42,868 nucleotides of DNA from Candidatus Heimdallarchaeota archaeon (GCA_016839945.1 JAEOTE010000039.1:1-42868), one strand, 5' to 3'. Positions 6,377-38,729 are shown, counted from the stretch's first letter. Program-made: numbers and translations. The notes: generated from the letters alone by a model not told the origin.

Positions 6377-7801
6377 TCATGCAAGGATTGTATTGTATAT
6401 TTTAGATTTAAGTACCTCTTCGAGTAAAATATCTTGCAGCGTCAGATGAAGAATGTTGTATTCATTTAACACTTTCTTGGAATTCTCTTCTACAACATCA
6501 GCTACAACTATACATATGAACTGATTTCTTAAACCCGCTATAGAACTAAGAGCATCAACAATCTCATTAGCTTGTGATTGTGTTAAAGCATCTTGAAATA
6601 ACTTAATGAAGATGTATGAAGACCCTTTTCTTAGCACTAAATCAAAAGAATCTTCAAATATTACAGTTTCTTTAAATTCAAGATTTTTGAATATTTTACT
6701 CATTCGAACTTTTAGATACTCTGAATCAAAAACAGCGTTCATGGTTCTAGGAACTGGTACAGACATATCGTCTATATTACTTGGAACAACTTCTTTGTTT
6801 CTTATTTCTGTTTCTAATTGTTCTTTGGGGAGGTTATTTGCGCTAATAACCGATTTAGTTTTTAAGGTTTTAGCAGAAGGAAAAGGCTTATACAATGAAA
6901 CCGTGTTTATCTGTTTGACTGTTTGATATTGATTTGGAATTGGTTCCAGTTTCTCTTTTTTCTGGGGAATTAAGTTGGGATCTTCTTTTTTTTCTTTCTT
7001 AAAAACTAATAGTTGATTAATATCAATAATATCAAAAAAGCACCCTTTATGTTTAATCCATGGAACACCAAACCTGAAATTTATCTGATTTCTATTTAGT
7101 TCATGTTTTGATACAACTTTAAGTTTGCAATTTAATTTTGTTGAACTTGAATTTATATAACGTAAGAAATTCTGCTTACTTTTTCTTAAATCATCTGATT
7201 TTTCACTTTCTGCTATGAAAACTAGTCCCCACAAAGGAGTATATCCTTTGTTCTTTTCATAACTTGGTGTGTGTGAAATAATAATAGAAAAGATATTGGC
7301 TTGTACTAAATCTCGTAGAAAGGAAGTAAAATTTCTTTGAAACATATAGTTTTCTGAATTTACTTCTGTGAGAATGCAAGCAAACATGTTAGTTTCTTTA
7401 TTATCCTTGAACTTTAATTTCAAAATATTATCATTTTCCTTCTCAATTTTCTTGATATTGGGTGTAAAGAATTTATCTGGATTTTCTATTTGTTTGAGTC
7501 CATATGTTTCTTCAAGATGTTGTAATGTTTTCTTATTAGATCCTTCGTTCTTATCGTTTGAATAAGTTTGATAAATTATTAGCGTTTGTTTATTTTTTTC
7601 AATTTTAACTGAGAAGGGAATATTTTTTGAACTTAATTCATTAACTAAAACAGATTTTTTCTTGAAACCTTTTGATGGAATATCAAATATATGAATTAAA
7701 AATTTATCATTATTGTTGAAATATTCAATTGCACCATTTTTCTTTTCTTTGAAATTATTGTAGTTATTCATATGAAAATCCATCATCTGTTCATGATTCA
7801 T
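6377..7801 (-). CDS. Hypothetical protein with C-terminal degenerate Mrr-like PD-(D/E)XK fold
   Basis: 474-aa ORF. The C-terminus FDLVLRKGSSYIFIKLF..CIVVAD..SKKVLNEYNILHLTLQDI follows the Mrr catalytic-domain layout. Confidence 0.6.
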   Translation of the reverse strand: MNHEQMMDFHMNNYNNFKEKKNGAIEYFNNNDKFLIHIFDIPSKGFKKKSVLVNELSSKNIPFSVKIEKNKQTLIIYQTYSNDKNEGSNKKTLQHLEETYGLKQIENPDKFFTPNIKKIEKENDNILKLKFKDNKETNMFACILTEVNSENYMFQRNFTSFLRDLVQANIFSIIISHTPSYEKNKGYTPLWGLVFIAESEKSDDLRKSKQNFLRYINSSSTKLNCKLKVVSKHELNRNQINFRFGVPWIKHKGCFFDIIDINQLLVFKKEKKEDPNLIPQKKEKLEPIPNQYQTVKQINTVSLYKPFPSAKTLKTKSVISANNLPKEQLETEIRNKEVVPSNIDDMSVPVPRTMNAVFDSEYLKVRMSKIFKNLEFKETVIFEDSFDLVLRKGSSYIFIKLFQDALTQSQANEIVDALSSIAGLRNQFICIVVADVVEENSKKVLNEYNILHLTLQDILLEEVLKSKIYNTILA

Positions 7802-7921
7802 TCTAATTAACGCAGTTTAAAGCTTCAATGGAATAACTAGATGAAATTATTTAAACACAGAGAATTCCATTCTTATTGTTTTTAATGTTTTTAATGTTTA
7901 AAAGAGAGAATTACCTTAGTT

Positions 7922-9343
7922 TTACGTATCTTCTAAAACACCAAAAAGAGCAGCTATAAGTGAGATTGTATCACCTAAACCTACAAGCATTCTAGGAGAT
8001 TCCACTATAATTGTAGGAATGGCAATTAAATCAAAGTTGGATGTTTTTAACATTCCAGTTGTAGATAATGTGTGTGTTTTAGAAAATACTTCTTCGAAAT
8101 GCTTGGTTAATATTTGAATCTCTCTCTTTCCTGATTCAGATGGACCAATTGCTTCTTCTGGTAAATCATCTAAAGAAAATAAATCTCCCTTTTCCGCTCT
8201 AACTGCAGCAAAAAGTGAAGCTAAAAGAAGAGAATTCTTCCTTTGAATCATTTTTTCATTATTAAGGTTTTTAGATAAAAAAAGATAATATCCTAGGTTA
8301 TGTAGTATGAAGTGTTTATCTTGGAAAACTTCTAACACCTTGAGAAGTCCTTCAAATATATTAATGGAATTCAGATTATCTTTTATCGTGGTATAAATTG
8401 ATGGATGTTGTACTTCTAACAATAATAATAATTCTTGTTCATTCATTCCAATAGAATCAACCAAAGGAAATATTTCCTTTATTATTGTGTTTCTTAACTT
8501 CTTGTTTTTTGTAACTGTAAGCTCTAAATGAATGTTTAATGATGGGTTTAACTCTTTCCAAGTTCTTAAAAGAGTTATTACTGGTTTAAGCATTTTTGAA
8601 TAAGTTAGAGATGGAATTTTTGGTTTAATAAGGTGAAATCCAGAAATAACCGTCAGAGAATAGTTTTGTATTGAAGAATTACTATATTCAATAAATTTTT
8701 TACTAAGCTTCAACTCTGAATTTATTTCATCAAAAGAAGCGATAAATCTGTTTGGTCTCTTACAGTGAATTTTCTTGTTCCCTACTTGATAAATACCTTC
8801 CTTAAACTCAAAAACATAATGAGAGATTGGTTCTATTTTACTTCTATCATATTCTTTTTTTCTATGGTCTGTTGTGTTTTCATTTTCTTCTAGAATCTTG
8901 ATGGATGAATCTAGTAATCTTGTTACTTCATTAGAATAAAAAGGAAGATTTAGAAGAATATTGTTAACTCCAATTTTTGGTAAGAAATTAGCCATTATTC
9001 CTGCTTGTCCCCCAATTTGAGTTTTATGTACACGAAAATGATCTTCAATCCACACACAGATTTCTTCAGAAAATATCAGTGATTCATCTGCTTTACCTGT
9101 CTTAATTGCATTAATTAATGAGCACATCAAATCTTCAATGGAATTAATTTCAGAGGGAGAGGATTTAGTTAAAAAGAGATTAGGGAACTCAAAATTTAAT
9201 AGTATTTCTTCTAATATTTCAGGCGTTATTTCTATTATCTTATCTAAATTTACATTGAATCCTAGTATCACACCTTTTATACGTGAAAGAGAAGTTTGAA
9301 AATGTGTTTTTGCTTCTGTATATTGTTGTTTCCAGTAATTCAT
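7922..9343 (-). CDS. ADP-dependent glucokinase/phosphofructokinase family sugar kinase (glucokinase-type signature)
   Basis: GFNVNLD, IGGQAGIMAN, NRFIASFD, DSIGMNEQEL and catalytic VGLGDTIS. ATG at 9343 preferred over TTG at 9388. Confidence 0.9.
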   Translation of the reverse strand: MNYWKQQYTEAKTHFQTSLSRIKGVILGFNVNLDKIIEITPEILEEILLNFEFPNLFLTKSSPSEINSIEDLMCSLINAIKTGKADESLIFSEEICVWIEDHFRVHKTQIGGQAGIMANFLPKIGVNNILLNLPFYSNEVTRLLDSSIKILEENENTTDHRKKEYDRSKIEPISHYVFEFKEGIYQVGNKKIHCKRPNRFIASFDEINSELKLSKKFIEYSNSSIQNYSLTVISGFHLIKPKIPSLTYSKMLKPVITLLRTWKELNPSLNIHLELTVTKNKKLRNTIIKEIFPLVDSIGMNEQELLLLLEVQHPSIYTTIKDNLNSINIFEGLLKVLEVFQDKHFILHNLGYYLFLSKNLNNEKMIQRKNSLLLASLFAAVRAEKGDLFSLDDLPEEAIGPSESGKREIQILTKHFEEVFSKTHTLSTTGMLKTSNFDLIAIPTIIVESPRMLVGLGDTISLIAALFGVLEDT

Positions 9344-19462: not shown

Positions 19463-19525
19463 CAGAGACGTCTGTCTAGTAAGTATAAATATGAAATTCC
19501 CTTGCAAGTATTAGAGACGAGAATA

Positions 19526-20740
19526 ATGAGTAAATCTGACGAGGAATTCTTTAATTCACTTATTAAAAAACCCACAGTATTCAAAAATATAAGCTGTTTA
19601 TCAGTCACCTATATACCTCCTTACCTTCCCCACAGAGAAGAAGAGCTGAGAACACTAGCTAAATATTTCAAGACCATTTTTCAAGACCAAGATGAACCTT
19701 TGAGAAAGATTTGTGTAACTGGTCCAACTGGTTCTGGTAAGACAACTTTGGTTAAAAGATTTGGCCAATTATTAACTAACATAGATAAACAAAAGAATTT
19801 TCTTTTCGTCTACATCAATTGTAGAATTTACAAAAGTCCATATTTGATAGTGAGTACGCTTGCTAGAAAATTGAACAAAGCTATACCCCCTAGAGGGTAT
19901 TCTTTTGAAGAATTACAGTCATTACTAATTCGTTTACTTGATTTTTATTCGGTAAAAGTTCTATTAGTTTTAGATGAGATAGATTACTTAGTTTCAAGAG
20001 TTGGAACTGATTTTCTTTATGTGTTGCTTCGTATAAGTGAAATGACTTCAAAGCAATGGGTTTCTTATATTTTCATTGCAAGGAATTTGAACTTTATGCA
20101 TAGACTTGATGCAAGCACACAGAGTAGTTTTCAATCTAACCATGTTTCATTAGACAAGTATAATGAAACTGACCTAAGAGACATAATCAAATCTCGAGCA
20201 GAAATAGCCTTTTATGATGGAGCTATAACTTCTGATACAATTGAGCTTATAGCAGATATTGCAAGTAAATCTGGTGACGCTAGATATGCAATAGAACTTC
20301 TTTGGGGAGCTGGTCAATGTGCTGATGATGAAGATTCTCCTATTGTTTATCCAGATCATACGAGGAAAGCAAAAGCTTTAATTCATCCTGAAATCCGAAG
20401 AGAAATAATTCTAACTTTGTCTCTACACCAAAAATTAATCTTGCTTTCAATTATAAGAAAATTAAAACACACAAAAAATGCGTATATATCAACAAATGAT
20501 GCCATTATCTCATACAAGTTAGTTTGTGAAGAATATAATGAAGAACCAAGAAAACACACACAAATTTGGTCTTATCTGAAGGATTTATCTAAACAAGATG
20601 TAATAAGTACAAAAATATCTGGAGAGGGTATGAGAGGGAAAACTACACTGATAAGCATACCAGATATATCTGTAGAAACAATAGAAATGTTCTTGATGAA
20701 AACTATTGACGAACAAAAGAAAGCAATTGAGCATGTATAA
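19526..20740 (+). CDS. cdc6: ORC1/Cdc6 replication initiator
   Basis: YIPPYLPHREEE, Walker A GPTGSGKT, YINC, Walker B LVLDEID, sensor-2 GDARYA, C-terminal winged helix with GMRGKT. ATG at 19526 preferred. Confidence 0.96.
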   Translation: MSKSDEEFFNSLIKKPTVFKNISCLSVTYIPPYLPHREEELRTLAKYFKTIFQDQDEPLRKICVTGPTGSGKTTLVKRFGQLLTNIDKQKNFLFVYINCRIYKSPYLIVSTLARKLNKAIPPRGYSFEELQSLLIRLLDFYSVKVLLVLDEIDYLVSRVGTDFLYVLLRISEMTSKQWVSYIFIARNLNFMHRLDASTQSSFQSNHVSLDKYNETDLRDIIKSRAEIAFYDGAITSDTIELIADIASKSGDARYAIELLWGAGQCADDEDSPIVYPDHTRKAKALIHPEIRREIILTLSLHQKLILLSIIRKLKHTKNAYISTNDAIISYKLVCEEYNEEPRKHTQIWSYLKDLSKQDVISTKISGEGMRGKTTLISIPDISVETIEMFLMKTIDEQKKAIEHV

Positions 20741-22162: not shown

Positions 22163-23137
22163 CTATTTATTGTTTTGCCCTTCTTCAACTAATTTAGCAA
22201 GTAACGAGCTAAGCTGTATATTACTGGATGCTCCTTCAGAAATCCTAAAGTCCACTTCAGCTAAGAATTCCGTTATTTTTAATTTTTGAGAATCAAGTAA
22301 TTCTAAAGAAGGAATTTCTCTGTATATTTGATGTGTCACATCAGTTCCTGAAAGACCAAATTCTAATATAAGAAGCTGTAAAACTTCCCTCGCTTTGTAG
22401 AAGTCTCCTTCTAGAGCATACTTCAACATTTGTTGTATTCTCTCAGGATCAGCATGACCAATAGTTTGTAGAACTGTCATCTTTTCTATTGATTTGCCTG
22501 AAGCAGCTGTGGATTGAAGAATATTTATGGCTTTTCTTAAATCTCCTTCAGAAATATAAAGAACAGTATCAATTCCTTCATTATCATAGGCTACTTGTTC
22601 TTTATCGCAGATGTTCTTAAGGAAAGATTTCATGCTTTCATTATCTAATGGTTTAAATCTAAAAATAGCACATCTAGATTGGATCGGTTCAATGATTTTA
22701 CTAGAATAATTACATATCAGAGCAAAGCGGCTAGTTGTTACATATCGTTCCATAGTTCTTCTTAGAGCATGTTGAGCAGCTGCTGTTAAACTATCAGCTT
22801 CATCAAGACACACAATTTTAAAAGGAACACCACCATAGGAAACGGTTCTTGCGAATTCTTTTACTTTGGTTCGCACTGCATCTATTCCTCTATCGTCTGA
22901 TGCATTTAACTCCAGAAGATTGCGTGTGACATTGCTTTGACCAAACAAATCATATGCTAATGCAAGAAGTGCTGTTGTTTTACCAGTTCCTGGTGGTCCA
23001 GCAAATAAAAGGTGTGGAAGATTTTTCCTTTCTATAAAACCTTTAAGTCTTAATTTTATGTCTTTATGTCCCTTAAGTTCTTTTAGAGTTTTTGGTCTAT
23101 ATTTTTCAGTCCACATGATATCAAACTTATCGCTCAT
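22163..23137 (-). CDS. rfcS: Replication factor C small subunit (no intein)
   Basis: WTEKYRP, GPPGTGKT, ELNASDDRG, LDEAD, ALRRTME, IEPIQSRC. Confidence 0.97.
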   Translation of the reverse strand: MSDKFDIMWTEKYRPKTLKELKGHKDIKLRLKGFIERKNLPHLLFAGPPGTGKTTALLALAYDLFGQSNVTRNLLELNASDDRGIDAVRTKVKEFARTVSYGGVPFKIVCLDEADSLTAAAQHALRRTMERYVTTSRFALICNYSSKIIEPIQSRCAIFRFKPLDNESMKSFLKNICDKEQVAYDNEGIDTVLYISEGDLRKAINILQSTAASGKSIEKMTVLQTIGHADPERIQQMLKYALEGDFYKAREVLQLLILEFGLSGTDVTHQIYREIPSLELLDSQKLKITEFLAEVDFRISEGASSNIQLSSLLAKLVEEGQNNK

Positions 23138-27548: not shown

Positions 27549-30422
27549 ATGTATGATATGAAGCTGAAGCAAATATTCTATTTTACGCTGTTTATTAGTG
27601 TGTTATTAGTGGTAAACATTTCTGTATATAATCAACTTGATAACTTAAATCACCCCTATAATGACAATTACTACTATAATCTAAACTCTAAAAATCAAGA
27701 AATTGGCTCATCAACAGAAGTAATAGGAAAGCCTGAAAGTTTTAAGAATAGACTACTAACATGGGAGGAAAATGAACAAAATCTAAATGAGACATTGAGT
27801 GATTTTGACCCAAATTTCAATGTTACTGGAGAATACATAGGTGACGAGGTAGAGGGTGGAATTGATGAAGGATTAAATATTACTGTTCCAAATCAAGGTC
27901 TTTATAACATTAATGGAAACATTTCACAACTTGAATCTCAGTATATACAAAATTCAGGAGCTGAATTGGACCAAGATTTTTATTCAAACAATGCTGTTCA
28001 AGCTGGACTTAGTCTTGAAAGAATTAAAGATAATAGAAGCATTGAGGGGGAATATGTATGGAAGTTTTATTCTAATAACACAGAAACTATGACTTATTCT
28101 CTATATCAAGAGAATATAGACTTATACAGAAATGATACAACTATAACTTATGATTATTTACTTGAATCAAACTCTAGCATTCAAAATGTATTGAATTCAT
28201 CCTTTATTGTTGATTTTGTTTTCGATACTTGTAGAATAATGATAATTCATTGGCATTATACTAATATTGATCCTCCATTAATAGGTGAGAATACAACAAT
28301 ACCATTTATTGTCTTTCGTTTATTACGAAACAGTAGTTGGGATGATCAATGGAATTCTAATTCTCTTTCATTATCCGAATTATTCAATCCAGATGACCCT
28401 TATATTCCGAACACACTAAAATCAGTAGGGTTTTACGTAGTATCACCAGAAGTTTCAGAATGCTCTTTTTTGATTGACAATTTGAAAATAAGAACTTCAT
28501 TACTAACAACAGATGTTAATTTAACAATTAATGACTTTCAAGTTAATTCAACAGGATTGGGGGAAGGAAGTATATCAATCCTAACAGCTATAACCGAAGA
28601 ACAGGTTCAAACAGGATATGAAGTAACATGGAATTTTAATTCTAGTTTTACAATAGATGCACATTACAACCTTTTCATTTCTGGAATAGCGAATATTTCC
28701 TTTGAGAAGAGTATTACAATATTTGAAGAAGATATTATTTTTAATGTATCAATTAGTAGTTTAAACTCGCAAATAAGCAAGGTGAACATATCTCATCCAG
28801 ATTTTTGGAGTTTGTTAGAAGAAATTCAAGGATGGAGTGTAATTTCAAATATCAGTATTGAGGAGGGGTATAATTTACTATCTTTGCTAAAAATAGGACA
28901 AGATAGCTATATCTATTGTAAATTTAAAATCCCAAATTTGATTGAAGATGTTTATTATGAATCTTTGAATGTTTTTGAGTCTGTTAATGCAACATTTGTC
29001 CTAAGATCGTCAATGCCGGACATTTTTGTTAATGCTTTTTGGTTTGCTGAGGATTGTGGAAGTGCGGAATTTGAGTTATTAAATAATAACTTGAGTTTTG
29101 TTTTTCCCCCTTGGATAAACAATGGTAGTGTAAACTTAGTCTTTATTATAACAAAAAACAACAATATAGGATATTCTAATGTAGAAGTTTTAATTTCAAG
29201 ATTACCTTCAGAATTAAATGTTATTGATCTACTTTCTATACCATTATACTCATTCAAGAAGATTAATCTAGAGTACAAAAGCCTAATTCCTGAATTCGAT
29301 ATACAAGAAGCCGGAATTTACGCATTATTAGATGATGAATCAATTCTTGTTAATGAGGAAGGAGATAATTTTCAACTTTGTATCTCTGCTTTCTATTTAG
29401 AAGAAGGGGATTACACGATTCAAGTTTATGCAAATTCAACATCGCATGCATCTCTGTTTAAGGAAATAACTCTTAACATATACGCTAGCTCCATTATAAT
29501 TGATTTTAACTATCAAAAACTAGAAAACTATCAGCAGTATCAGCTTAATTTTAACATTTCATCTGACGCTTATCCGATAAGCTATGCACCACTTATAGTT
29601 GAATTAAATAACAAAACAATTTCAGGTGTAACCAACAGCGAAGGTGCTTTTTCATGTGAAGTGACATTGCCTATTGATACATTTTCAACAACCGTTATAT
29701 GTTCTCTAACGAAAACGTACAACATTATAGTATCAAAATCATTTGAGATAATATTTTCAAGCTTATATACAGAGATATTCAGAAGTGATGAGGACGTAAT
29801 AATCTCTAGTAATATTACAATCACATATTCTTTGCATTATTCAACTTCTTATGACAAATGGTTTTCAACCATAGAAGAGGAGATGCTACCCATTATTGAT
29901 GCATATATAGAAGCTGAAAGTTTACGAATACCCGTTAGTTGGAATTCTGATTATATTTATTGGCAAATACAAGCAAATAACGAAACGAATAACCATAAAC
30001 TAGTTATTGTAACCACAGGACCAGAATATCAGGCTTTATTAGAAAAAAATGATAACACAATTAACGTTCATTTCACAATCAGTTCAACTGAAAAAGAGCA
30101 TTCTAGCCTCTCTCTAATATATTATTTCAACATAAGCATAACAAGTGCAAAATATCAATGGTTGTTGTTTACAAGTGGGAGTAATGATGTGACAGATGTT
30201 TACGACATGGAAATAAATGATCTTTATATTTACATTGGAAGTATAAACATCACAAAAGGAAGTTACTTGATTCTAGAGTTAATAGGCACAAAAACATCAA
30301 ACTCTAATCAAATAACAAACATTGTTGTTCCTCTTGTTTCAAGTTCTGGCATTTTATTGGGGGTTGTTACAGCCATAATGAGAGTATACAACAAGAAAAA
30401 AGGTTTAATTCTAGAGATATAG
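27549..30422 (+). CDS. Large membrane-anchored cell-surface glycoprotein (beta-rich, probably Ig-like domains)
   Basis: N-terminal signal/TM, C-terminal TM followed by KKKG, acidic and Asn/Ser/Ile-rich, about 30 N-x-S/T sequons by eye. Confidence 0.75.
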   Translation: MYDMKLKQIFYFTLFISVLLVVNISVYNQLDNLNHPYNDNYYYNLNSKNQEIGSSTEVIGKPESFKNRLLTWEENEQNLNETLSDFDPNFNVTGEYIGDEVEGGIDEGLNITVPNQGLYNINGNISQLESQYIQNSGAELDQDFYSNNAVQAGLSLERIKDNRSIEGEYVWKFYSNNTETMTYSLYQENIDLYRNDTTITYDYLLESNSSIQNVLNSSFIVDFVFDTCRIMIIHWHYTNIDPPLIGENTTIPFIVFRLLRNSSWDDQWNSNSLSLSELFNPDDPYIPNTLKSVGFYVVSPEVSECSFLIDNLKIRTSLLTTDVNLTINDFQVNSTGLGEGSISILTAITEEQVQTGYEVTWNFNSSFTIDAHYNLFISGIANISFEKSITIFEEDIIFNVSISSLNSQISKVNISHPDFWSLLEEIQGWSVISNISIEEGYNLLSLLKIGQDSYIYCKFKIPNLIEDVYYESLNVFESVNATFVLRSSMPDIFVNAFWFAEDCGSAEFELLNNNLSFVFPPWINNGSVNLVFIITKNNNIGYSNVEVLISRLPSELNVIDLLSIPLYSFKKINLEYKSLIPEFDIQEAGIYALLDDESILVNEEGDNFQLCISAFYLEEGDYTIQVYANSTSHASLFKEITLNIYASSIIIDFNYQKLENYQQYQLNFNISSDAYPISYAPLIVELNNKTISGVTNSEGAFSCEVTLPIDTFSTTVICSLTKTYNIIVSKSFEIIFSSLYTEIFRSDEDVIISSNITITYSLHYSTSYDKWFSTIEEEMLPIIDAYIEAESLRIPVSWNSDYIYWQIQANNETNNHKLVIVTTGPEYQALLEKNDNTINVHFTISSTEKEHSSLSLIYYFNISITSAKYQWLLFTSGSNDVTDVYDMEINDLYIYIGSINITKGSYLILELIGTKTSNSNQITNIVVPLVSSSGILLGVVTAIMRVYNKKKGLILEI

Positions 30423-30423
30423 A

Positions 30424-30534
30424 TTAATCTTCTTCTTCTTCCTTTCCTATGCTGAAAGCATGATAAAAGAGTGCGAATATTATAGCTAGAATTACTAGAA
30501 TAATTGAAATTGTAAATATAACTGTGTAATCCAT
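30424..30534 (-). CDS. 36-aa single-TM peptide, OST4-like
   Basis: MDYTVIFTISIILVILAIIFALFYHAFSIGKEEEED from ATG 30534. The TM ends in YHA as in Ost4; a TATA-like AT tract lies upstream. Confidence 0.55.
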   Translation of the reverse strand: MDYTVIFTISIILVILAIIFALFYHAFSIGKEEEED

Positions 30535-30612
30535 AGCAATCAGTTGAGGAATTTTATATTTATTAATAAGCTTTTCGACTAATTGGTAAATTGAAGAGAA
30601 AAGTAACATAAA

Positions 30613-32787
30613 TTATTCAGAGTACATGTTATTTAGAAGATTATTTGTAGCTTCTTTAAACCTAACCTCTTCTATAGATCTTGCAACTATCTCTAAACTA
30701 TCAAGAAACGGATTCTTATTTACTTTACCACTAATCACAAGCTCTGAATTTACGAAATTCTTGTTTTTCAACAAGAAGGTGTAAGGAGCTTTTTCGGATT
30801 CTTGTTCGTTTACCATTTTTAACGCTGAATTGGCATCCATCCCTAAAATTTTTTCAGCTAAATCCCCCGCACAAAAAACATTAATGTTACCAGTTCCATC
30901 ATTTACTACAAAAGTAAACAATATTCTATTAAGTGGGGAATCAATATCATCATGCCTTTCACATGTGTATTTACCTTCTTTTTCATCCAATTTCTTCTTG
31001 CATTCAGGACATAAAGCATATACAAATTGTTTCTCAATTAATTTTATCACCGTTGCTTGAATTGTCACATAATCGTCTTCTTTGATATCCTCAATGTCTT
31101 GAATTTTTTGTTGTTTGGAATCAATTTTAGAAACAGATAACCCAGAAACAAAATCATTCGGAGAGATTTCACCATAAAGGGATTTTTTGATTATTGTATC
31201 TCTTGTTACTTGCAAGCCTACACCATAGCCTGTATCTTCTTTAACTTTAGCGTAATAGATTTCTACTTGATCTCCCACATTAAAATCAGAAATCTTTTCC
31301 ACATTCTCTCTCCAGCATGTAAAGCGCACCTCTGCAGTACTATCCTCAATCTTAAAATTTCTAAGATTTACGATTTCAGTTTCTTTTGTTTCAATTTCTT
31401 GTATTGGACTTTTGTCACTCACAATACCTCTCACATGAACAAATTCTTGGTTTTCAGAAATACTATCAAGATTATTAAAACCGACTATGTGTTGTTGATA
31501 TATGTCAGATTCTACATCTTCGATATTTATTTGCGCATCTTTCCCACAATGAAATTCAGTTCTTGAATATTTTACTCCTCTGATTTCTATTTCTCTAATT
31601 CTGACAATACCATTTACAATTGTAGCAAGTTTGTCAACATCATTTTCAGTTATCAATTGGGTTTTATCATCCCAAATAACCACTCTGATGATATCAGTGT
31701 CATCCGATAATGTTAAATTTCTTACTTTTCCAGTTGTTTTATTATCTCTAGAAAACTCATGCAGAGGAGTTACATTAATTATTATCCCTTTTATTGATGT
31801 ATAATTATTATTTAGTGTTTCATTAATATCTTTGATTTTTGTTAATTGACTTTCTAACACTTCATTTGTGATGATTAAACCTTTTTTTACAACAATATCT
31901 TTTATAGCTGATGACTTTTTTATTTTACTAAATCCACCGAAATGGAGTTCTACAGATCCTTTGAAACTTTTGGAATTCAAATCAGTAATTTCAACAATAT
32001 CCCCAAGCTTAAAATCATCTAGCAGAATTGTCTTTTCATTCCAAAAATTTACATAAATTTCTCCTGTTTCGTCACCAACTGTAATGGCAAGTTTTTGTCC
32101 TGTAGTAGAGTCTGAACGTGCAAAATCCCGTTTATCATCAATTTGAGTAATTTTTCCTACTGTGGTTATATTTGTCTGATTATCTTTTATTTCATTTATT
32201 TTCATTATGGTTGTTTGAAGAAGCGGTAAGTCTTCATCTTTAACACCAGAAGGCCTGATTTGTATTTGGCTGTTTCGACCCAGATGTACCTCAATAGATT
32301 CTCCATCCCTACTCTTCTTTGTGTATCCGTTAAAAATTCGAATTAAATCACCACTTTTACAGTTTCCATCCTGTAATTCTTTGGCTTTTTCATCCCAGAA
32401 AACCACCCTTATACTTCCTGTTTTATCGTAAACAGTAGCTGACTGTAAAACACCTGTTGTACCGTCATTCCTTTGAAAACTATGTTGATCTGCAATTTTA
32501 GAAATTCTACCAAGGATGTTAATATTTGATGTTGGTATATTATCTTCTGTTGATTTTGATAAATCTAATTGACTAATCGGAGTTATAGATTGTACTCTTA
32601 CAGTTGGTTCGGATGACAAATCTACATTATTTTCTCTAGCTACAATATGAGCTGCTCCCAGTTCTGTCACAAAATCCCCCAATTCATCCATTTTGTCATT
32701 TATCAGTTGATGAATTTCATCCTTTCCAAAACCTGTTTCTGATGCTATTAGTTCTACAATCTCTTTTAATGAACGTTGGTTAGACAT
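30613..32787 (-). CDS. rpa: Replication protein A large subunit (multiple OB folds plus Zn finger)
   Basis: Repeated D(K/E/D)TG.I.V.FW OB motifs; last OB carries CPECKK..CERH followed by VNDGTGNI. Confidence 0.9.
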   Translation of the reverse strand: MSNQRSLKEIVELIASETGFGKDEIHQLINDKMDELGDFVTELGAAHIVARENNVDLSSEPTVRVQSITPISQLDLSKSTEDNIPTSNINILGRISKIADQHSFQRNDGTTGVLQSATVYDKTGSIRVVFWDEKAKELQDGNCKSGDLIRIFNGYTKKSRDGESIEVHLGRNSQIQIRPSGVKDEDLPLLQTTIMKINEIKDNQTNITTVGKITQIDDKRDFARSDSTTGQKLAITVGDETGEIYVNFWNEKTILLDDFKLGDIVEITDLNSKSFKGSVELHFGGFSKIKKSSAIKDIVVKKGLIITNEVLESQLTKIKDINETLNNNYTSIKGIIINVTPLHEFSRDNKTTGKVRNLTLSDDTDIIRVVIWDDKTQLITENDVDKLATIVNGIVRIREIEIRGVKYSRTEFHCGKDAQINIEDVESDIYQQHIVGFNNLDSISENQEFVHVRGIVSDKSPIQEIETKETEIVNLRNFKIEDSTAEVRFTCWRENVEKISDFNVGDQVEIYYAKVKEDTGYGVGLQVTRDTIIKKSLYGEISPNDFVSGLSVSKIDSKQQKIQDIEDIKEDDYVTIQATVIKLIEKQFVYALCPECKKKLDEKEGKYTCERHDDIDSPLNRILFTFVVNDGTGNINVFCAGDLAEKILGMDANSALKMVNEQESEKAPYTFLLKNKNFVNSELVISGKVNKNPFLDSLEIVARSIEEVRFKEATNNLLNNMYSE

Positions 32788-32803
32788 TGATATACAACTC
32801 TTC

Positions 32804-34090
32804 TTACTTCGTATAAACTTTATGTTTCGAATGCATTATTGAAGTATCTAAATGCTTTGATAAGTCAATTGATTTTTTATTAATAATTTGAAAGAGTTCA
32901 GCTTTATTATTTACTAAAGTGTATAAGAAGTGAAAATCTGAAACGAAGATTGAAACAAAAGAAAACCACAGAGTATTATCATTATTATCTAAAACTCTGT
33001 AGGTCTTTATGTAAGGTACTTTATTATAAAGATCCAATAGCTCTTTATTTGTTATCAGTAGTAAATTCATTAATTCATCACTATCAACAATAATTTTAGG
33101 TTGAATTATTCCCATGTCCTTCAATTTGGACTTAACACGAAATAGAGTTCTAATTGATATCTCATAATCTTGTGAAATCTGTTTTATTTCTGGTCTTCTA
33201 TAATCCAGTTCACAGTTTCTCATTAATTTCAAAATATAATTTTTATTAGCAGAAGTTATAGGAAAACATTGTTTATTGTCCTCTTCTTCATTTATTGGTT
33301 TATCAGAGAATTTCTGAATTGAGTGTTTTTTCCAATCTTTGATAGAAACACCCATATTTAGTACATTTCTATTCAAAAATGATTGTTTCTCTTGAACATA
33401 ATAGATTGATGAATTAGAGATTTTTTGAAGCAAAACACCATATAATATCTTGAATCTTGGAAATAGATGGAATTCATCAATGAACAAGGAATTTTCTTTT
33501 AAATTTTTGTTAAAGTTAAAGGAGAAGAACTCATATGAATCAGCAGAATAATAAGAAGCTACACAGCCCAGGAATATACCCCGTGAACGCAAATTCTGGA
33601 TAGTAGTACTGACGGTTTTTTCAGAAACGTTTAATTTCTTAGCTATTTCTTTGTATAACGAATATGGATTTTCATCTGCTTTTTCAATTATTCTCTGCTC
33701 TAAATAACTAAGATTTAGCTTTGTACTTCTTTTTACTAAACATCTTTCAAAATACTTCAAGATTCGATTATAATTCATGTCTCGGGAATAAATAAAATCA
33801 TGAAACCTTCTTATTTGAACCCAGAAATCTTTATGATCGACAAATTTCCAGAATTCATTTATACTAATTTCTTTATTATTAAAAAAATATTTAATAAAAG
33901 TATTTGTAAAATTGGTTTTGAGGCTAGAAGTAAATTTGGGGAAACTATCGCGAAAAAGATTCTTTACTCTAGTTTCTGGAAAATCGTTAATTTTTAATCT
34001 AAAATTACAAGGTTCTATTCCTCCGCTTAAGAGAAGATTGATTAATTGTGTTTCAACCATCTGCGTGCTAAGTTCACAAAAGTTCATCAC
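32804..34090 (-). CDS. Hypothetical protein with two Lrp/AsnC-like HTH motifs
   Basis: LYKEIAKKLNVSEKTVSTTIQNLRSRG and IKQISQDYEISIRTLFRVKSKLKDMG. Confidence 0.62.
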   Translation of the reverse strand: MMNFCELSTQMVETQLINLLLSGGIEPCNFRLKINDFPETRVKNLFRDSFPKFTSSLKTNFTNTFIKYFFNNKEISINEFWKFVDHKDFWVQIRRFHDFIYSRDMNYNRILKYFERCLVKRSTKLNLSYLEQRIIEKADENPYSLYKEIAKKLNVSEKTVSTTIQNLRSRGIFLGCVASYYSADSYEFFSFNFNKNLKENSLFIDEFHLFPRFKILYGVLLQKISNSSIYYVQEKQSFLNRNVLNMGVSIKDWKKHSIQKFSDKPINEEEDNKQCFPITSANKNYILKLMRNCELDYRRPEIKQISQDYEISIRTLFRVKSKLKDMGIIQPKIIVDSDELMNLLLITNKELLDLYNKVPYIKTYRVLDNNDNTLWFSFVSIFVSDFHFLYTLVNNKAELFQIINKKSIDLSKHLDTSIMHSKHKVYTK

Positions 34091-34227
34091 AATTCATAAT
34101 TTGAATTTAATATTTATACACCACTTTTTGCAAGTGGGCGTCAGTTTTAAACATGTATTATAAGATAAATTAGGAATCAATCAAATATAATAGAAAGAAT
34201 CTATAAAGAATATCATGTTTTATTGCT

Positions 34228-35322
34228 TTATTTTATCTTAATTGAAGTTTTTCTTGTTTGTTTGTATTTATAAATTATAAATGCTGAACTGAAGACAACT
34301 ATTGAAAGACTTGCAATAATCAAGGCATAATAACTAAAAACCCAAACAGGAGGTGGTGCTCTTGCAGGATGTGGAGTATATTTTAAAAGCCATAAAATTA
34401 TATTTTTCCATAAATCTAAATTATCAGTTTGATTTATCCATTTTTGATTGTCACTTATTTCCAAATCGCTAAACATTATTGTTGAACCTGAAAGAATCAT
34501 TCTTGATGAACCAACTCCCTTTGCAAGAAGCCAAGTGAGAAAACCGTTGATTGAATCACGAAAGATGTCGTATTCTTCATTTACTGAATATGATGTAATA
34601 GCTGTTCTTCCTATTGAATATTGGAGATTTTCGTTTCCCAGACTAATAGAAGAAGTGTAAAGTGTAGTTGTATTAATTTGAATTTCTTGTTCAGATATAG
34701 CGAGTACAATTGGATTAATCCTTTCTGTTGGTTCTGTAATTGAGTGTGTAGCATTATAAAAGTCTAGACAAACATAACTTTCATTGCCGTATGTGTTTGA
34801 AAAATCATCTATTACTAAATCAGAATTAGAAAGGTCAGATCCTGTACGAAGACGTGCGGAAGACAGTGTATTTTCTCTAGCTGCAAGAAGATCATTAATA
34901 GAAACTGGATGTCCAGTGATATTTTCGTCTTGTGCTAAAGGATTTCCCAGGAGGAATAGAGAACCACCAAGTTCTACGTAATCTAGAACTGCTTCCAATT
35001 CAGTATAAATCAATTTATCTTTAGTTTCAGAACCAGGATTTGTAAATATTAGTAAATCAACGCCTTGAAGATTAGTTGAATTAAACCTTGAATCATTGTT
35101 GAAAATTAAATCGATTCTAATTTCATCTTCCAAAATATCGGGTAATAAATTATTTAACGCTGACAAAGCGGTATACATCAATGTTCTGTTGAAATATTGA
35201 CCGTGGTATTCATCGAATAGTATAACATATTCATGTTCTGCGTCACCTATTGCCTGATAAAAGTTGGAACTAGCTACAGAGCCAAAGATTAGTAGTAATA
35301 TTACTAGTGAGTATTTCTTCAT
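34228..35322 (-). CDS. Type I membrane protein with GIFT (GldG/IFT52/OST48-N-like) domain, WBP1/OST48-like
   Basis: Signal peptide, ILFDEYHGQ, DLLIFTNP, YVELGGSLFLLG, RMILSGSTIMFSD, NLDLWKNIILWL, C-terminal TM and basic tail. Confidence 0.7.
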   Translation of the reverse strand: MKKYSLVILLLIFGSVASSNFYQAIGDAEHEYVILFDEYHGQYFNRTLMYTALSALNNLLPDILEDEIRIDLIFNNDSRFNSTNLQGVDLLIFTNPGSETKDKLIYTELEAVLDYVELGGSLFLLGNPLAQDENITGHPVSINDLLAARENTLSSARLRTGSDLSNSDLVIDDFSNTYGNESYVCLDFYNATHSITEPTERINPIVLAISEQEIQINTTTLYTSSISLGNENLQYSIGRTAITSYSVNEEYDIFRDSINGFLTWLLAKGVGSSRMILSGSTIMFSDLEISDNQKWINQTDNLDLWKNIILWLLKYTPHPARAPPPVWVFSYYALIIASLSIVVFSSAFIIYKYKQTRKTSIKIK

Positions 35323-35457
35323 AATATCCCGTACAAAGCGATTTGTTAGGGAATAAAAGATAGTATATTTAGATTTTTCGCCCTTTGTGGATTTTTAGTA
35401 ACTATCTGAATAAATCACAAATCTTAAAAATTTTAGTTTCTCGATTGTAATAAAATG

Positions 35458-35533
35458 GCCTCGATAGCTCAGTTGGTAGAGCGTTGCCTTGGTAAGGCAA
35501 AGGTCAGGGGTTCAATCCCCCTTCGAGGCTCCA
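35458..35533 (+). tRNA. tRNA-Thr(GGT), CCA encoded, no intron
   Basis: GCCTCGA-TA-GCTC-AGTTGGTA-GAGC-G-TTGCC-TTGGTAA-GGCAA-AGGTC, T arm with TTCAATC loop, TCGAGGC-T-CCA. Confidence 0.95.
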
Positions 35534-35599
35534 TGTTTTAATCAAAATATTAAATAGCAAAACTCATAAATTTAGCTTTTTAGATTACACTGAAGGCTA

Positions 35600-36385
35600 A
35601 TGACAAGTCTAAAAACCAAATCAGATGAAGAAATCATAAAGAAAATAACACTCTTTATTCGAAAAAAAAAGATAGACTCTGGTTGTAAAGGAGCAGTAGT
35701 TTGCCTTAGTGGTGGATTAGATTCAGCGGTTGTTGCATATTTAGCTATACAAGCAATAGGAAAAGAAAATGTTACATTAGTTCATCTTCCAGAGAAAGAC
35801 TTAGATCCAATTCATACAGAAGATGCTAAACTTATTGCGAATGAGCTAAATACACAACTTAAGGAGATTAATATTTCTTCAATATTAAACGAAACACTTG
35901 AAATATTGCCAGAGTTAGAGAAAAACAAATTAGCAAAAGGAAATTTAAAAGCAAGAATCCGAGCGGTTATTGCTTATTCTATAGCAAATCTTGATAATAG
36001 ATTAGTAATAGGAACTTCAAATAAATCAGAGTTATCAATAGGGTACGGAACTAAATATGGAGATTTGGCTTCAGACATGTTGCCTATAGGGGATATATAT
36101 AAAACACATTTGTATGGGATTGCAAAAAAATTAGGTGTAAATAAAAAGATAATAGAAAAAATTCCAACAGCGGGATTGTGGCCAAATCAAACAGATGAAG
36201 AGGAAATAGGTGTTTCTTATAAAAAACTAGATAGATTCTTAATCGGGCTGGAGATTCAAGAAGACGAAGAAAGTCTTGCTAAGGAATTAAAGCTAAATAA
36301 AAACCAAGTTTTTAGAATAAAGGAACTTCTACGCAAAAATAAACATAAATTAGAGTTTCCAGAAATATATAGAATCCAAACATGA
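35600..36385 (+). CDS. nadE: NH3-dependent NAD+ synthetase
   Basis: LSGGLDS, GNLKARIR, GTSNKSE..GYGTKYGD, PTAGLWPNQTDEEEIG. Confidence 0.95.
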   Translation: MTSLKTKSDEEIIKKITLFIRKKKIDSGCKGAVVCLSGGLDSAVVAYLAIQAIGKENVTLVHLPEKDLDPIHTEDAKLIANELNTQLKEINISSILNETLEILPELEKNKLAKGNLKARIRAVIAYSIANLDNRLVIGTSNKSELSIGYGTKYGDLASDMLPIGDIYKTHLYGIAKKLGVNKKIIEKIPTAGLWPNQTDEEEIGVSYKKLDRFLIGLEIQEDEESLAKELKLNKNQVFRIKELLRKNKHKLEFPEIYRIQT

Positions 36386-36449
36386 TTATCTTATACACGA
36401 TTTGTGTGGGGTATATAATAGAAACTAGACAATTATAATTAGAAGAATA

Positions 36450-36674
36450 ATGTCATTTGATGTAACCGATAACTTCTTTCATCAATTAATTGAAATTATT
36501 CATATTGTGTTCTTCTATATCGTAAAAATCACACTCTTTATTGGAATATTGTTTACAACGGAAAGGATTGGGAAAGGCATGATAGCTAAAAAAGGAAGGA
36601 ATAATTATTCCGGAATTGGAAAAGGTTTGCTAATTATTCTATTTTCCTTAATTTTTTATTTTATTTTTTCTTAA
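36450..36674 (+). CDS. Small 2-TM membrane protein (74 aa)
   Basis: Two hydrophobic segments around a basic loop; ATG start; fills the intergenic gap. Confidence 0.6.
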   Translation: MSFDVTDNFFHQLIEIIHIVFFYIVKITLFIGILFTTERIGKGMIAKKGRNNYSGIGKGLLIILFSLIFYFIFS

Positions 36675-36788
36675 GTTTTTCAGTAAAATGATTAGAAATG
36701 ATGAAACTAGTAAGTTTCTAATAATCCTTAACATTAAAATATCATTATTGTTGAATTAATATTAATAAGACTCAACCGAATAGGTGAA

Positions 36789-37427
36789 TTGCTTGTGTTA
36801 AGTAGTTTGTTAGAAAATTCAAAAATACCCCTGGGTGTCACTCATGTTGCAGGCGCTCCTAATTCGGGAAAAACCACATTGCTTTATCAGTTATGTCGAA
36901 ATCTGAGTAAAGAAAAAAAGGTCCTTATTTTTGATTGTGAAATGAGTTTCAGTGCTCAAAGATTACAAGAGGTTATTAAAAAAAGAGATATTCTTAAGAA
37001 AGTCATAGTAATACGAATAACGGACAAAAAACAACAGCTCTTGAATATAATGAAAACCCACAACTTTCTTATGAATAACTCATTTCATTTCATAGGAATT
37101 AATGGATTTACTAATCATTTTAGATTTACTGAAAAAGCTACAAATGAAATATCGATTCATCGAAGATTAGGAATACAGATGGCCTATCTAATGAAAATTA
37201 GCAAAGAGCTTAAACAACCTATTGTTCTCACTAACCAAGTTAGTGTTTTTAAGAAAAATGATAAACAAATACTTAAATCAGTGGCAGGTCAGATAATAAA
37301 TCACTATTCAAAAACAAATATTGTTTTACAGCACATAAATAAAAAACTCTGGAAAGCAAGAAATGAAGACGTAGAGGTTTATTACACTCTTTCTTCAGGA
37401 GGAATCGAAGTAGTATCACAAAAATGA
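36789..37427 (+). CDS. RadA/Rad51 paralog (RadB/aRadC-like, core domain only)
   Basis: Walker A GAPNSGKT, IFDCEMSFSAQRL, degenerate Walker B IGING, IVLTNQV; no N-terminal HhH domain. Confidence 0.8.
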   Translation: MLVLSSLLENSKIPLGVTHVAGAPNSGKTTLLYQLCRNLSKEKKVLIFDCEMSFSAQRLQEVIKKRDILKKVIVIRITDKKQQLLNIMKTHNFLMNNSFHFIGINGFTNHFRFTEKATNEISIHRRLGIQMAYLMKISKELKQPIVLTNQVSVFKKNDKQILKSVAGQIINHYSKTNIVLQHINKKLWKARNEDVEVYYTLSSGGIEVVSQK

Positions 37428-37432
37428 GTGGG

Positions 37433-37861
37433 TTATCCACCTTTTGCGTTATATAACAGAAGAATAGCAACAAACCATACTACTACTAGTAAAGTTGCAA
37501 TAATTTCAACTTTTTGAGCAGTGTTCACATCAAAGGCATATTTAGTTGCATGGTCAAAAAGATACAAACTAACAGCAGCAAAAGCAAACACAAAACCTGC
37601 AACTATGCCTTCAATAAGATATTGATAATGTAGGTTTGGGGCAATGAAAAGAGGACTGTTACCTGATTGGCCTAAGCTGACAAGAGTATCCTTGTTAACT
37701 ATATCGTATGCACCACCACTAAATATGTAGAATATTATACCATATATTACGATGTAAAAAACACTACGTGGAATCCTTGTTGGAATTCTAACAGAAATTT
37801 GTTGTAAACTGAAATTTGGTCTCCTAATACCAGGTAAAATCCAAGGTAGTTTCCTAGCCAT
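37433..37861 (-). CDS. Oligosaccharyltransferase subunit OSTC/DC2 (OST3/OST6 family TM domain)-like protein
   Basis: 3 TM, FSGGAYDIV and QYLIEGIVAG match the DC2/OST3 G..YD and QY..EG motifs; 142 aa. Confidence 0.8.
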   Translation of the reverse strand: MARKLPWILPGIRRPNFSLQQISVRIPTRIPRSVFYIVIYGIIFYIFSGGAYDIVNKDTLVSLGQSGNSPLFIAPNLHYQYLIEGIVAGFVFAFAAVSLYLFDHATKYAFDVNTAQKVEIIATLLVVVWFVAILLLYNAKGG

Positions 37862-37967: not shown

Positions 37968-38729
37968 TTATCTTTTGAAAACAATTTTGTTCTCCAAAGG
38001 ATAGACAACATATTTCCCTGGATTCTTCTCAACCATGCTAACAAGAAAGCTTTCAGTGGTTTTAATTGAAACCCCTAGATCTTTGGAGATACTATCAAAA
38101 TTTATTTCATCCAACTCTTCTGACTTTTCTTCAACATATTCAGTCAACATTATCTCAAAATTTTCTCTGCTTAAAAATAATTGTTGATCTTTTACTACTC
38201 CACCCAAAATTGCATCATCAACCATTTGATGTATCAAAGAAAGCAGCAAATCGAGTTCTATTTTTAACTTCCTACTTATTTCTTGAATTTCATATTCTTC
38301 TTTGTTTTGAAGAGTGGACAGAATATAATTCTGAAGATATTTTAGTGAGTAATACGCTTCTTCACTCATTACTCCTCTTTCTAAGTGCTGTAGGAATAAA
38401 TCCAGGATTTTGTCTTTAATCTTCCAATGTTTCTTAAGAGGATCTAAATTAACAAGACCAGTGTTTTTAAGTCTGTTTTTAAGGTCGCCTAAAGCTTCAT
38501 CTTCCATTGAAAAGAAATAAAGATTTTTTTTGGTTAAGACTATACCACTTATTTTTCTAGAAGAAAGCAATTTATTAGTAACTTTGTATCTTTGTTCTGG
38601 AGATAATTTTGATTGTATTCTCATCAAATTCAAGAAATTTTTGTTTTCTAGTTCTTCTATCAAATGGTTTTCAAATACTTTTTCTTTTGAAGTAAACAAC
38701 ACAGAGATTCTTCTTAAGAGAGAACTCAT
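37968..38729 (-). CDS. Tandem winged-helix/PCI-like protein (UFL1/DDRGK1-like)
   Basis: Repeated wHTH units: RLKNTGLVNLDPL, IQEISRKLKI..IHQMVDDAILGGVV, INFDSISKDLGVS. Confidence 0.55.
   Translation of the reverse strand: MSSLLRRISVLFTSKEKVFENHLIEELENKNFLNLMRIQSKLSPEQRYKVTNKLLSSRKISGIVLTKKNLYFFSMEDEALGDLKNRLKNTGLVNLDPLKKHWKIKDKILDLFLQHLERGVMSEEAYYSLKYLQNYILSTLQNKEEYEIQEISRKLKIELDLLLSLIHQMVDDAILGGVVKDQQLFLSRENFEIMLTEYVEEKSEELDEINFDSISKDLGVSIKTTESFLVSMVEKNPGKYVVYPLENKIVFKR

Follow-up and report, generated by a model that had tools for sequence, protein, structure and literature searches.

Two of the genes analysed here are related to accessory subunits of the eukaryotic oligosaccharyltransferase (OST). 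One of these subunits, OSTC/DC2, binds STT3(A) and bridges OST to the Sec61 channel. Homologs of OST subunits were reportedly found in Asgard archaea by Zaremba-Niedzwiedzka and colleagues in 2017, and they bear on the origin of co-translational N-glycosylation at the translocon of the endoplasmic reticulum (ER). As the initial annotation of the DNA studied here had pointed out, such homologs are on record: Asgard homologs of all OST subunits have been reported, with OST3/6-type proteins, ribophorin I, STT3 and a divergent WBP1 in Heimdallarchaeia (Eme et al., 2023; PMC10307638). Moreover, arguments for and partial tests of a coupling of OST to the translocon have been published for a Lokiarchaeon, in which the cytosolic domain of OST1 binds ribosomes (PMC11417166). 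Thus, the idea of a multi-subunit Asgard OST is already published (PMC10307638, PMC11417166). Here we analyse a stretch of 42,868 nucleotides from Candidatus Heimdallarchaeota archaeon (contig C5; GCA_016839945.1 JAEOTE010000039.1:1-42868), referred to as the window in its full length. The initial annotation had proposed that positions 30,424 to 37,861 hold a loose cluster of OST4-, WBP1/OST48-, OSTC/DC2- and possibly OST5-like genes, which would belong to a multi-subunit, DC2-containing OST. The source genome measures 3.0 Mb and is 88% complete, and the closest protein relatives of the window genes carry the public labels Heimdallarchaeaceae or Heimdallarchaeota. Comparisons were made with 83 genomes of the class Heimdallarchaeia and 201 genomes sampled from the phylum. 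Taken together, it appears fairly likely that the window encodes two real relatives of OST accessory subunits, that these would belong to a multi-subunit OST, and that their genes lie close to each other as members of an old synteny block.

The first relative is the OSTC/DC2-like protein. It reaches 35.9 bits with the Pfam model PF04756 (OST3_OST6), whose cut-off is 27, over profile positions 181-284 of 294, which represent the membrane part, and its locus was recovered with 34.5 bits when the source genome was searched with the same model. All other PF04756 matches in this genome are weak and confined to the thioredoxin part, or, in one case, amount to 9 bits. Among PDB sequences, phmmer found human OSTC chains as the sole relatives (6s7o_H, E 0.001), and a profile built from 18 sequences (A4) likewise retrieved human OSTC and nothing else. 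Chains of Ost3, Ost6, TUSC3 or MagT1 were not among the PDB sequences matched at E values up to 10, neither with the single sequence nor with the profile. Residues 26-135 align with residues 27-130 of the human OSTC chain, and hydropathy analysis places three transmembrane (TM) helices at residues 30-48, 79-105 and 114-142. By sequence comparison, the gene is confirmed as a genuine OSTC/DC2-type member of the OST3/6 family, as had been proposed, and among PDB sequences its product appears nearer to OSTC than to the OST3/6-type subunits.

Human OSTC/DC2, a subunit of the STT3A-type OST (6S7O chain H, 8B6L), and the archaeal protein are alike in size (149 versus 142 amino acids), in having three TM helices while lacking a thioredoxin domain, in their Pfam family and in aligning nearly end to end. 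They differ in that the similarity is low (E about 1e-3) and that the archaeal protein has an invariant basic, proline-rich N-terminus of its own. Furthermore, the archaeon has no ER, and the protein is therefore predicted to act at the cell membrane. The gene is found in 77 of the 83 Heimdallarchaeia genomes, in frames of 140-190 amino acids, and in 157 of the 201 phylum genomes, always as a separate frame of ~140-200 amino acids. Since the frame is always this short, its product stands alone and lacks a thioredoxin domain. The sole OST3/6-family membrane protein that we found has, in other words, the architecture of DC2.

In agreement with the initial annotation, STT3 is not encoded in the window. 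Its gene lies on contig C36 (757 amino acids, 171.7 bits), and that of ribophorin I on contig C62; the latter protein has 721 amino acids, covers profile positions 5-435 of 437 and carries ~160 extra residues at its C-terminus. DAD1/Ost2 and ribophorin II/Swp1 gave no Pfam match at E values up to 1; as the source genome is 88% complete and the ribophorin II model did not match any of 14 control genomes either, neither miss establishes absence. Since STT3 and ribophorin I are encoded on other contigs, a multi-subunit OST in the source archaeon is plausible, as judged from its gene content. Most likely, the OSTC-like protein and the GIFT protein described below would join STT3 and ribophorin I in a multi-subunit OST of the cytoplasmic membrane, and this complex would glycosylate secreted proteins. 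The proposal of a multi-subunit, DC2-containing OST is thus borne out as far as STT3, ribophorin I, an OSTC-type protein and a GIFT protein are encoded, but not for homologs of OST4 and OST5 or for DAD1 and ribophorin II, none of which was found. Compared with the Asgard set of Eme et al. (2023; PMC10307638), which covers the same lineage and the same families, we describe gene neighbourhoods that were not treated there and find the GIFT family to extend far past the class (149 of 201 phylum genomes), whereas DAD1, Swp1, Ost4 and Ost5 were not recovered here with Pfam models.

A likely substrate is encoded next to the OST-related genes. The 957-amino acid protein starts with a signal peptide, is anchored by a C-terminal TM helix (TM segments 4-22 and 922-947), matches no Pfam domain, and contains 29 N-x-S/T sequons where 16.5 are expected from its composition. 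It is likely a heavily N-glycosylated surface protein that would be acted on by the OST. An ortholog of 964 amino acids is found at the same place in the genome L016, in which the GIFT protein shares 50% identity with that of the window.

The second relative had been annotated as WBP1/OST48-like. It consists of a signal peptide, one extracytoplasmic GIFT domain (of the OST48_N/IFT52/GldG superfamily) and a C-terminal TM helix; its hydrophobic segments span residues 6-25 and 324-353 and are followed by a basic tail of 11 residues, and it contains eight sequons. It therefore has the type I topology of OST48. The AlphaFold2 model of the protein is of limited confidence (pLDDT only 64, pTM 0.65). 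With this model, Foldseek retrieved yeast Wbp1 first (7oci_G, 1.4e-7), followed by IFT52 (4e-7) and human OST48. VIA-align gave Z scores of 16.9 for IFT52, 16.1 for Wbp1 and 16.0 for OST48, and VIA superpositions over 225 aligned residues resulted in root-mean-square deviations of 3.7 Å for Wbp1 and 4.0 Å for OST48. Residues 29-320 of the model align to residues 25-305 of the OST48/Wbp1 chains (up to 344 in 6s7t_G). The N-terminal domain of OST48 thus accounts for the whole extracytoplasmic part, with the TM helix directly behind it, from which we conclude that the protein has no counterpart of the OST48 middle domain. In line with the alignment, the protein has 364 amino acids, compared to 430-456 in the eukaryotic OST48/Wbp1 subunits. 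The model confirms a likeness to WBP1/OST48 at the level of the GIFT fold and of topology, and by fold the protein appears to tie between Wbp1/OST48 and IFT52.

The Pfam model OST48_N scores the GIFT protein with 17.3 bits, below its cut-off of 36. Of the 27 family members, 22 match OST48_N weakly (best E 2.3e-6) and also match IFT52_GIFT and ABC_transp_aux; overall, relatives match OST48_N, IFT52_GIFT, ABC_transp_aux, DUF4350 and ThuA about equally. A profile restricted to Heimdall sequences found IFT52 alone in the PDB, and a profile of 91 sequences (A3) found IFT52 (1.6e-13), Wbp1 (4.5e-8) and OST48 (5.9e-7). The gene is present as a single copy in 78 of the 83 Heimdallarchaeia genomes, and the GIFT protein of the distant phylum family f11 is a homolog by hhalign (99.4%). 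Most likely, this is the family that has been published as the Asgard 'WBP1'.

The protein can be compared with three groups of described proteins. With Wbp1/OST48 (DDOST; 6EZN, 7OCI, 6S7O chain G) it shares type I topology, a short basic tail and an N-terminal lumenal GIFT-like alpha/beta domain (Z 15-16 over ~225 residues), but it lacks the middle lumenal domain, its OST48_N score is sub-threshold, and Pfam models recovered neither of the partner subunits, DAD1 and Swp1, in the source genome. With the GIFT domain of IFT52 (5FMS, 5FMR) it shares the fold, the best profile match and the best VIA Z score; IFT52, however, is cytosolic and has neither signal peptide nor TM helix. With the prokaryotic GIFT families (GldG/ABC_transp_aux, DUF4350 and ThuA) it shares the fold, and many members of its family match the Pfam models of these families. 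GldG differs in having TM helices at both ends and in working alongside a neighbouring ABC transporter. A role as a GldG-like accessory of an ABC transporter was considered and is unlikely, no transporter being adjacent in the window; in Heimdallarchaeum endolithica the GIFT gene has an ABC-2 transporter ~8 kb away.

Several results weigh against the reading of these genes as parts of an OST that lie in an old synteny block. Pfam models failed to recover DAD1, ribophorin II, OST4 and OST5 in the 88%-complete genome. Profile searches score the GIFT family higher against IFT52 than against Wbp1/OST48, and in the model alignment the second (middle) lumenal domain of OST48 is not present. In an Atlas feature search, the nearest named clusters of the GIFT protein are archaeal ABC_transp_aux and DUF4350. 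Finally, four genes of the region, encoding the OSTC-like protein, the GIFT protein, a 36-amino acid micro-protein and a UFL1/DDRGK1-like winged-helix protein, re-pair as direct neighbours across the genera of the Heimdallarchaeaceae, which could mean that they form a selected functional neighbourhood rather than a case of passive synteny. It is conceivable that the GIFT protein does not belong to an OST at all, but is a generic extracytoplasmic protein of the GIFT/DUF4350/GldG type, such as a glycan-binding protein or an accessory of a transporter, which lies near OSTC only because both belong to a shared old synteny block. The sub-threshold OST48_N score, the evenly distributed Pfam matches, IFT52 as the best PDB sequence match, the Atlas clusters, the missing middle domain and the wide occurrence of the family in the phylum are what such a protein would show. 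We nevertheless consider this unlikely, since Foldseek leads with Wbp1/OST48, the protein resembles OST48 in topology and differs in this from IFT52, which is cytosolic, no ABC transporter adjoins the gene in the window, and the gene is single-copy and near-universal in Heimdallarchaeia. Moreover, in the genome G003 it lies directly downstream of the UFL1-like gene, in the slot that OSTC holds elsewhere. We favour the reading in which the OSTC-like and GIFT proteins are two OST-accessory relatives.

All genes named in the initial annotation are present at the positions given by it, and nine features in total fall within 30424-37861 (Table 1). The OST4-like, OST48-like and OSTC-like reading frames are on the minus strand and are, as Pfam searches confirm, interleaved with genes for RPA, nadE and a Rad51 paralog. 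An OST operon was considered and rejected: the genes of the region are on both strands and interleaved with those for RPA, tRNA-Thr, nadE and RadB, and therefore do not form an operon.

Table 1. Features of the window, with positions counted from its first nucleotide.
Feature	Position	Strand	Basis or remark
Cdc6/Orc1 and RFC small subunit	19502-20740 (+) and 22163-23137 (-)		~10 kb from the OST-related genes
957-amino acid sequon-rich surface protein (likely)	27549-30422	+	Sequon count, TM segments
61-amino acid open reading frame (ORF), conserved reading of 36 amino acids	30424-30609, conserved reading 30424-30534	-	ORF and conservation
RPA, four OB folds and C-terminal Zn domain; replication gene, not OST	30613-32787	-	Pfam Rep_fac-A_C, tRNA_anti-codon, REPA_OB_2
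428-amino acid helix-turn-helix (HTH) protein	32804-34090	-	One short HTH motif, residues ~130-172
364-amino acid GIFT membrane protein, OST48/WBP1-like candidate	34228-35322	-	Fold, topology
tRNA-Thr	35458-35533	+	
nadE, NH3-dependent NAD synthetase, 261 amino acids	35600-36385	+	Pfam NAD_synthase, 250 bits
74-amino acid ORF with two TM segments	36450-36674	+	
Rad51/RadB-like paralog	36789-37427	+	Pfam Rad51, E 1.1e-10
142-amino acid OSTC/DC2-like protein	37433-37861	-	Pfam PF04756
253-amino acid UFL1/DDRGK1-type tandem winged-helix protein	37968-38729	-	PDB profile search, Foldseek

Within the class, linkage of OSTC and GIFT is found in one family, the Heimdallarchaeaceae (f1); elsewhere in the class, in six families, they occupy separate contigs or are separated by more than 100 kb. 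Their distance is about 2-3 kb in genus g1, 3 kb in G002, 1.4 kb in G004, 7 kb in Heimdallarchaeum (G005/G006) and 40 kb in G001. The whole block is colinear in L016 and rearranged in Heimdallarchaeum, where the gene for PolD DP2 abuts that for the GIFT protein. Outside the class, 26 genomes of the distant phylum family f11 have OSTC and GIFT on one contig, 17-27 kb apart. In one of them (L105/L106, G106:C28:175500-198000) the distance is ~20 kb, and the genes in between encode RPA, PolD DP2, a RadB-like paralog, XPD, TopA, Lhr helicase and PAC4. The replication and repair genes found there are of the kinds that are also interleaved in the window. RPA, RadB, OSTC and GIFT thus recur together in f11, which argues that this part of the gene set is an old synteny block. 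The simplest reading of the closeness of OSTC and GIFT is that both reside in an old block rich in informational genes, possibly near a replication origin; Cdc6/Orc1 and RFC nearby fit a region that is rich in replication genes and possibly origin-proximal. The loose cluster seen initially accordingly withstands comparison across relatives in so far as the proximity of OSTC and GIFT recurs, but it belongs to a replication-gene block and not to an OST operon.

To the inventory of Asgard OST homologs that has been published, the locus contributes little. It does sharpen this inventory: the only OST3/6-family protein that was found in these archaea is built like DC2/OSTC and not like OST3/6; what has been called the WBP1 homolog has a single GIFT domain, appears equidistant from OST48 and IFT52 and is widespread in Asgard archaea; and the proximity of OST genes at this place should not be taken as an operon. 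The region furthermore provides two leads, a 36-amino acid membrane micro-protein and a UFL1/DDRGK1-like protein whose gene recurs beside OST-related genes.

The micro-gene is a genuine, conserved coding gene. Its product has a single TM helix and follows the pattern MD[FY]..TM..FALFYHAF..GKEEE. It is present in all 30 other Heimdallarchaeaceae genomes searched, which represent five genera, with the same start, stop and length. Nucleotide diversity at the three codon positions is 0.28/0.12/0.46, as in a coding sequence under purifying selection. Two other families of the class have weaker relatives of 34-38 amino acids, in which an L-x-YH motif and the acidic tail are kept; none was detected in five f11 genomes. 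The gene is convergent with that of the 957-amino acid protein.

The initial annotation had called the micro-gene OST4-like, and while the gene itself stands, homology to OST4 found no support in Pfam, PDB, hhalign or decoy comparisons. The Pfam model Ost4 (PF10215) did not match the peptide or 14 relatives at E values up to 10, nor did it give a match in the source genome and five other Heimdallarchaeia genomes, and OST4 chains were absent among the PDB matches of two micro-protein profiles. The human OST4 sequence, taken as confirmed in PMC5988510, aligned with the micro-protein family in hhalign over 13 columns in the same register (P 0.01, probability 4%) and scored 0.8 bit on the family profile in HMMER. 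When the N-terminal, TM and C-terminal segments were shuffled, 2103 of 5000 decoys (42%) scored at least as high as human OST4. Eukaryotic Ost4 proteins (36-37 amino acids) resemble the micro-protein in having one TM helix and the same length, in the acidic residue that follows the start and in a YH motif at about residue 25, which is in register. They differ in their C-terminus, which is basic or polar in Ost4 and acidic in the micro-protein, and there is no profile-level similarity, Pfam Ost4 being blind to the micro-protein. The resemblance to OST4 rests on length, the one TM helix and the YH motif. The micro-protein could fill an Ost4-like role, homology not being demonstrable.

There is about an even chance that the micro-gene encodes an unrelated small membrane peptide that is co-transcribed with RPA and resembles OST4 by chance. 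In genus g1 it lies 78 nucleotides downstream of RPA on the same strand, and it abuts RPA also in Heimdallarchaeum, although the two genes are convergent there. Every profile test against OST4 fails, and an Atlas feature search with the micro-protein yields only unnamed clusters, below 0.9. Against coincidence speak the OST4 length class and the YH motif in the same register. Moreover, the micro-gene is a neighbour of OSTC in G003 and is co-oriented downstream of the UFL1-like gene in G005/G006, and its relatives in other families are not adjacent to RPA.

The UFL1-like gene is co-oriented with the OSTC-like gene and lies 106 nucleotides upstream of it. It encodes a soluble protein with four tandem winged-helix domains (AlphaFold2 pLDDT 90). 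A profile of this protein (A7) retrieved from the PDB a DDRGK1-UFL1 chimera first (8b9x, E 1e-6), with DDRGK1 and UFL1 next. Foldseek with the model also found 8b9x (1e-8), and then UFL1 on the 60S subunit (8ohd, 8qfc; 1e-7). Moreover, the ortholog from Heimdallarchaeum passes the cut-off of the Pfam model E3_UFM1_ligase (34.7 versus 23.2 bits). The protein shares its tandem winged-helix array with the UFL1-DDRGK1 scaffold of the UFM1 E3 ligase (8B9X, 8OHD), which is its best match in sequence and fold. It differs in having no TM anchor and only four winged-helix domains, and Ufm1 and UFC1 were not found in the source genome. The lack of both agrees with the work of Picchianti et al. (2023; PMC10183829), who traced UFL1 and DDRGK1 to Asgard archaea and suggested a UFM1-independent role.

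A KaiC-roadblock-FIST-GTPase operon is the neighbour that the UFL1-like gene keeps most constantly, and it adjoins this gene across the five genera of the family. On the other side of the UFL1-like gene lies OSTC in genera g1 and g2, GIFT in G003 and the micro-gene in G005/G006; OSTC directly adjoins the micro-gene in G003. In another family that has a UFL1-like gene, no linkage to OST-related genes was found. A gene for 251 amino acids in the f11 block was considered as a UFL1-like homolog, and the comparison was negative. In a bin of family f7, a small contig (G077:C96:2322-3646) carries a UFL1-like gene of the Heimdallarchaeaceae type beside an OSTC gene with an in-frame TGA. This genome also has its own divergent copies, and the contig is probably due to mis-binning or contamination.

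One way to read these changing pairs is that the UFL1/DDRGK1-like protein, OSTC, GIFT and the 36-amino acid protein make up a functional neighbourhood, a ribosome-translocon-OST module in which the micro-protein would be the archaeal Ost4. We regard this as improbable. It would account for the UFL1-like gene lying directly upstream of OSTC, GIFT or the micro-gene depending on the genus and for the adjacency of OSTC and the micro-gene in G003, and it would suit the matches of the winged-helix protein to UFL1 and DDRGK1, 60S-bound UFL1 included. The OST4 length and in-register YH motif of the micro-protein point the same way, and the missing UFM1 and UFC1 fit the UFM1-independent role proposed in PMC10183829. 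However, all re-pairings were seen in one family, inside a block whose genes are already close, and by our own estimate have roughly a 5-10% chance of arising by accident. In addition, the KaiC-roadblock-FIST-GTPase operon and not an OST-related gene is the most constant neighbour, linkage is missing in other families with a UFL1-like gene, and the micro-protein matches human OST4 no better than shuffled decoys do and is missed by Pfam Ost4. Because its direct neighbour is OSTC, GIFT or the micro-gene in different genera, the winged-helix protein might, independently of UFM1, be the cytosolic partner of a module of OSTC, GIFT and the Ost4-like micro-protein, tethering ribosomes to the translocon and OST; this we deem quite improbable. 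If true, ribosome tethering by the winged-helix protein would be the ancestral job from which UFMylation at the ER evolved. Passive membership in an old synteny block is the reading we prefer for the closeness of OSTC and GIFT.

The fourth of the proposed OST genes was the 74-amino acid ORF, which had been put forward as possibly OST5-like. It encodes a two-TM hairpin that is restricted to two genera. The Pfam model Ost5 (PF05251) matched neither the protein nor 11 relatives, and a search of the source genome with this model did not match the locus. A profile of the protein matched none of the solved OST5/TMEM258 chains in the PDB, where it gave only weak matches to cytochrome oxidase subunit 2. 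With no match in Pfam, PDB or genome searches, the proposed likeness to OST5 found no support, and the ORF is not taken for OST5. The protein evolves much faster than its neighbours, with 29-40% identity within a genus.

Concerning the remaining genes of the block, the 428-amino acid HTH protein has no further recognisable domain, and its position between the GIFT gene and RPA is kept in L016. In Heimdallarchaeum endolithica (L017), nadE is present as a fusion of 561 amino acids with a CN-hydrolase (glutaminase) domain (7366-9051), whereas the nadE of the window is the ammonia-dependent form. The H. endolithica genome also has, near nadE, a LAGLIDADG gene and a gene for PolD DP2 with an intein.

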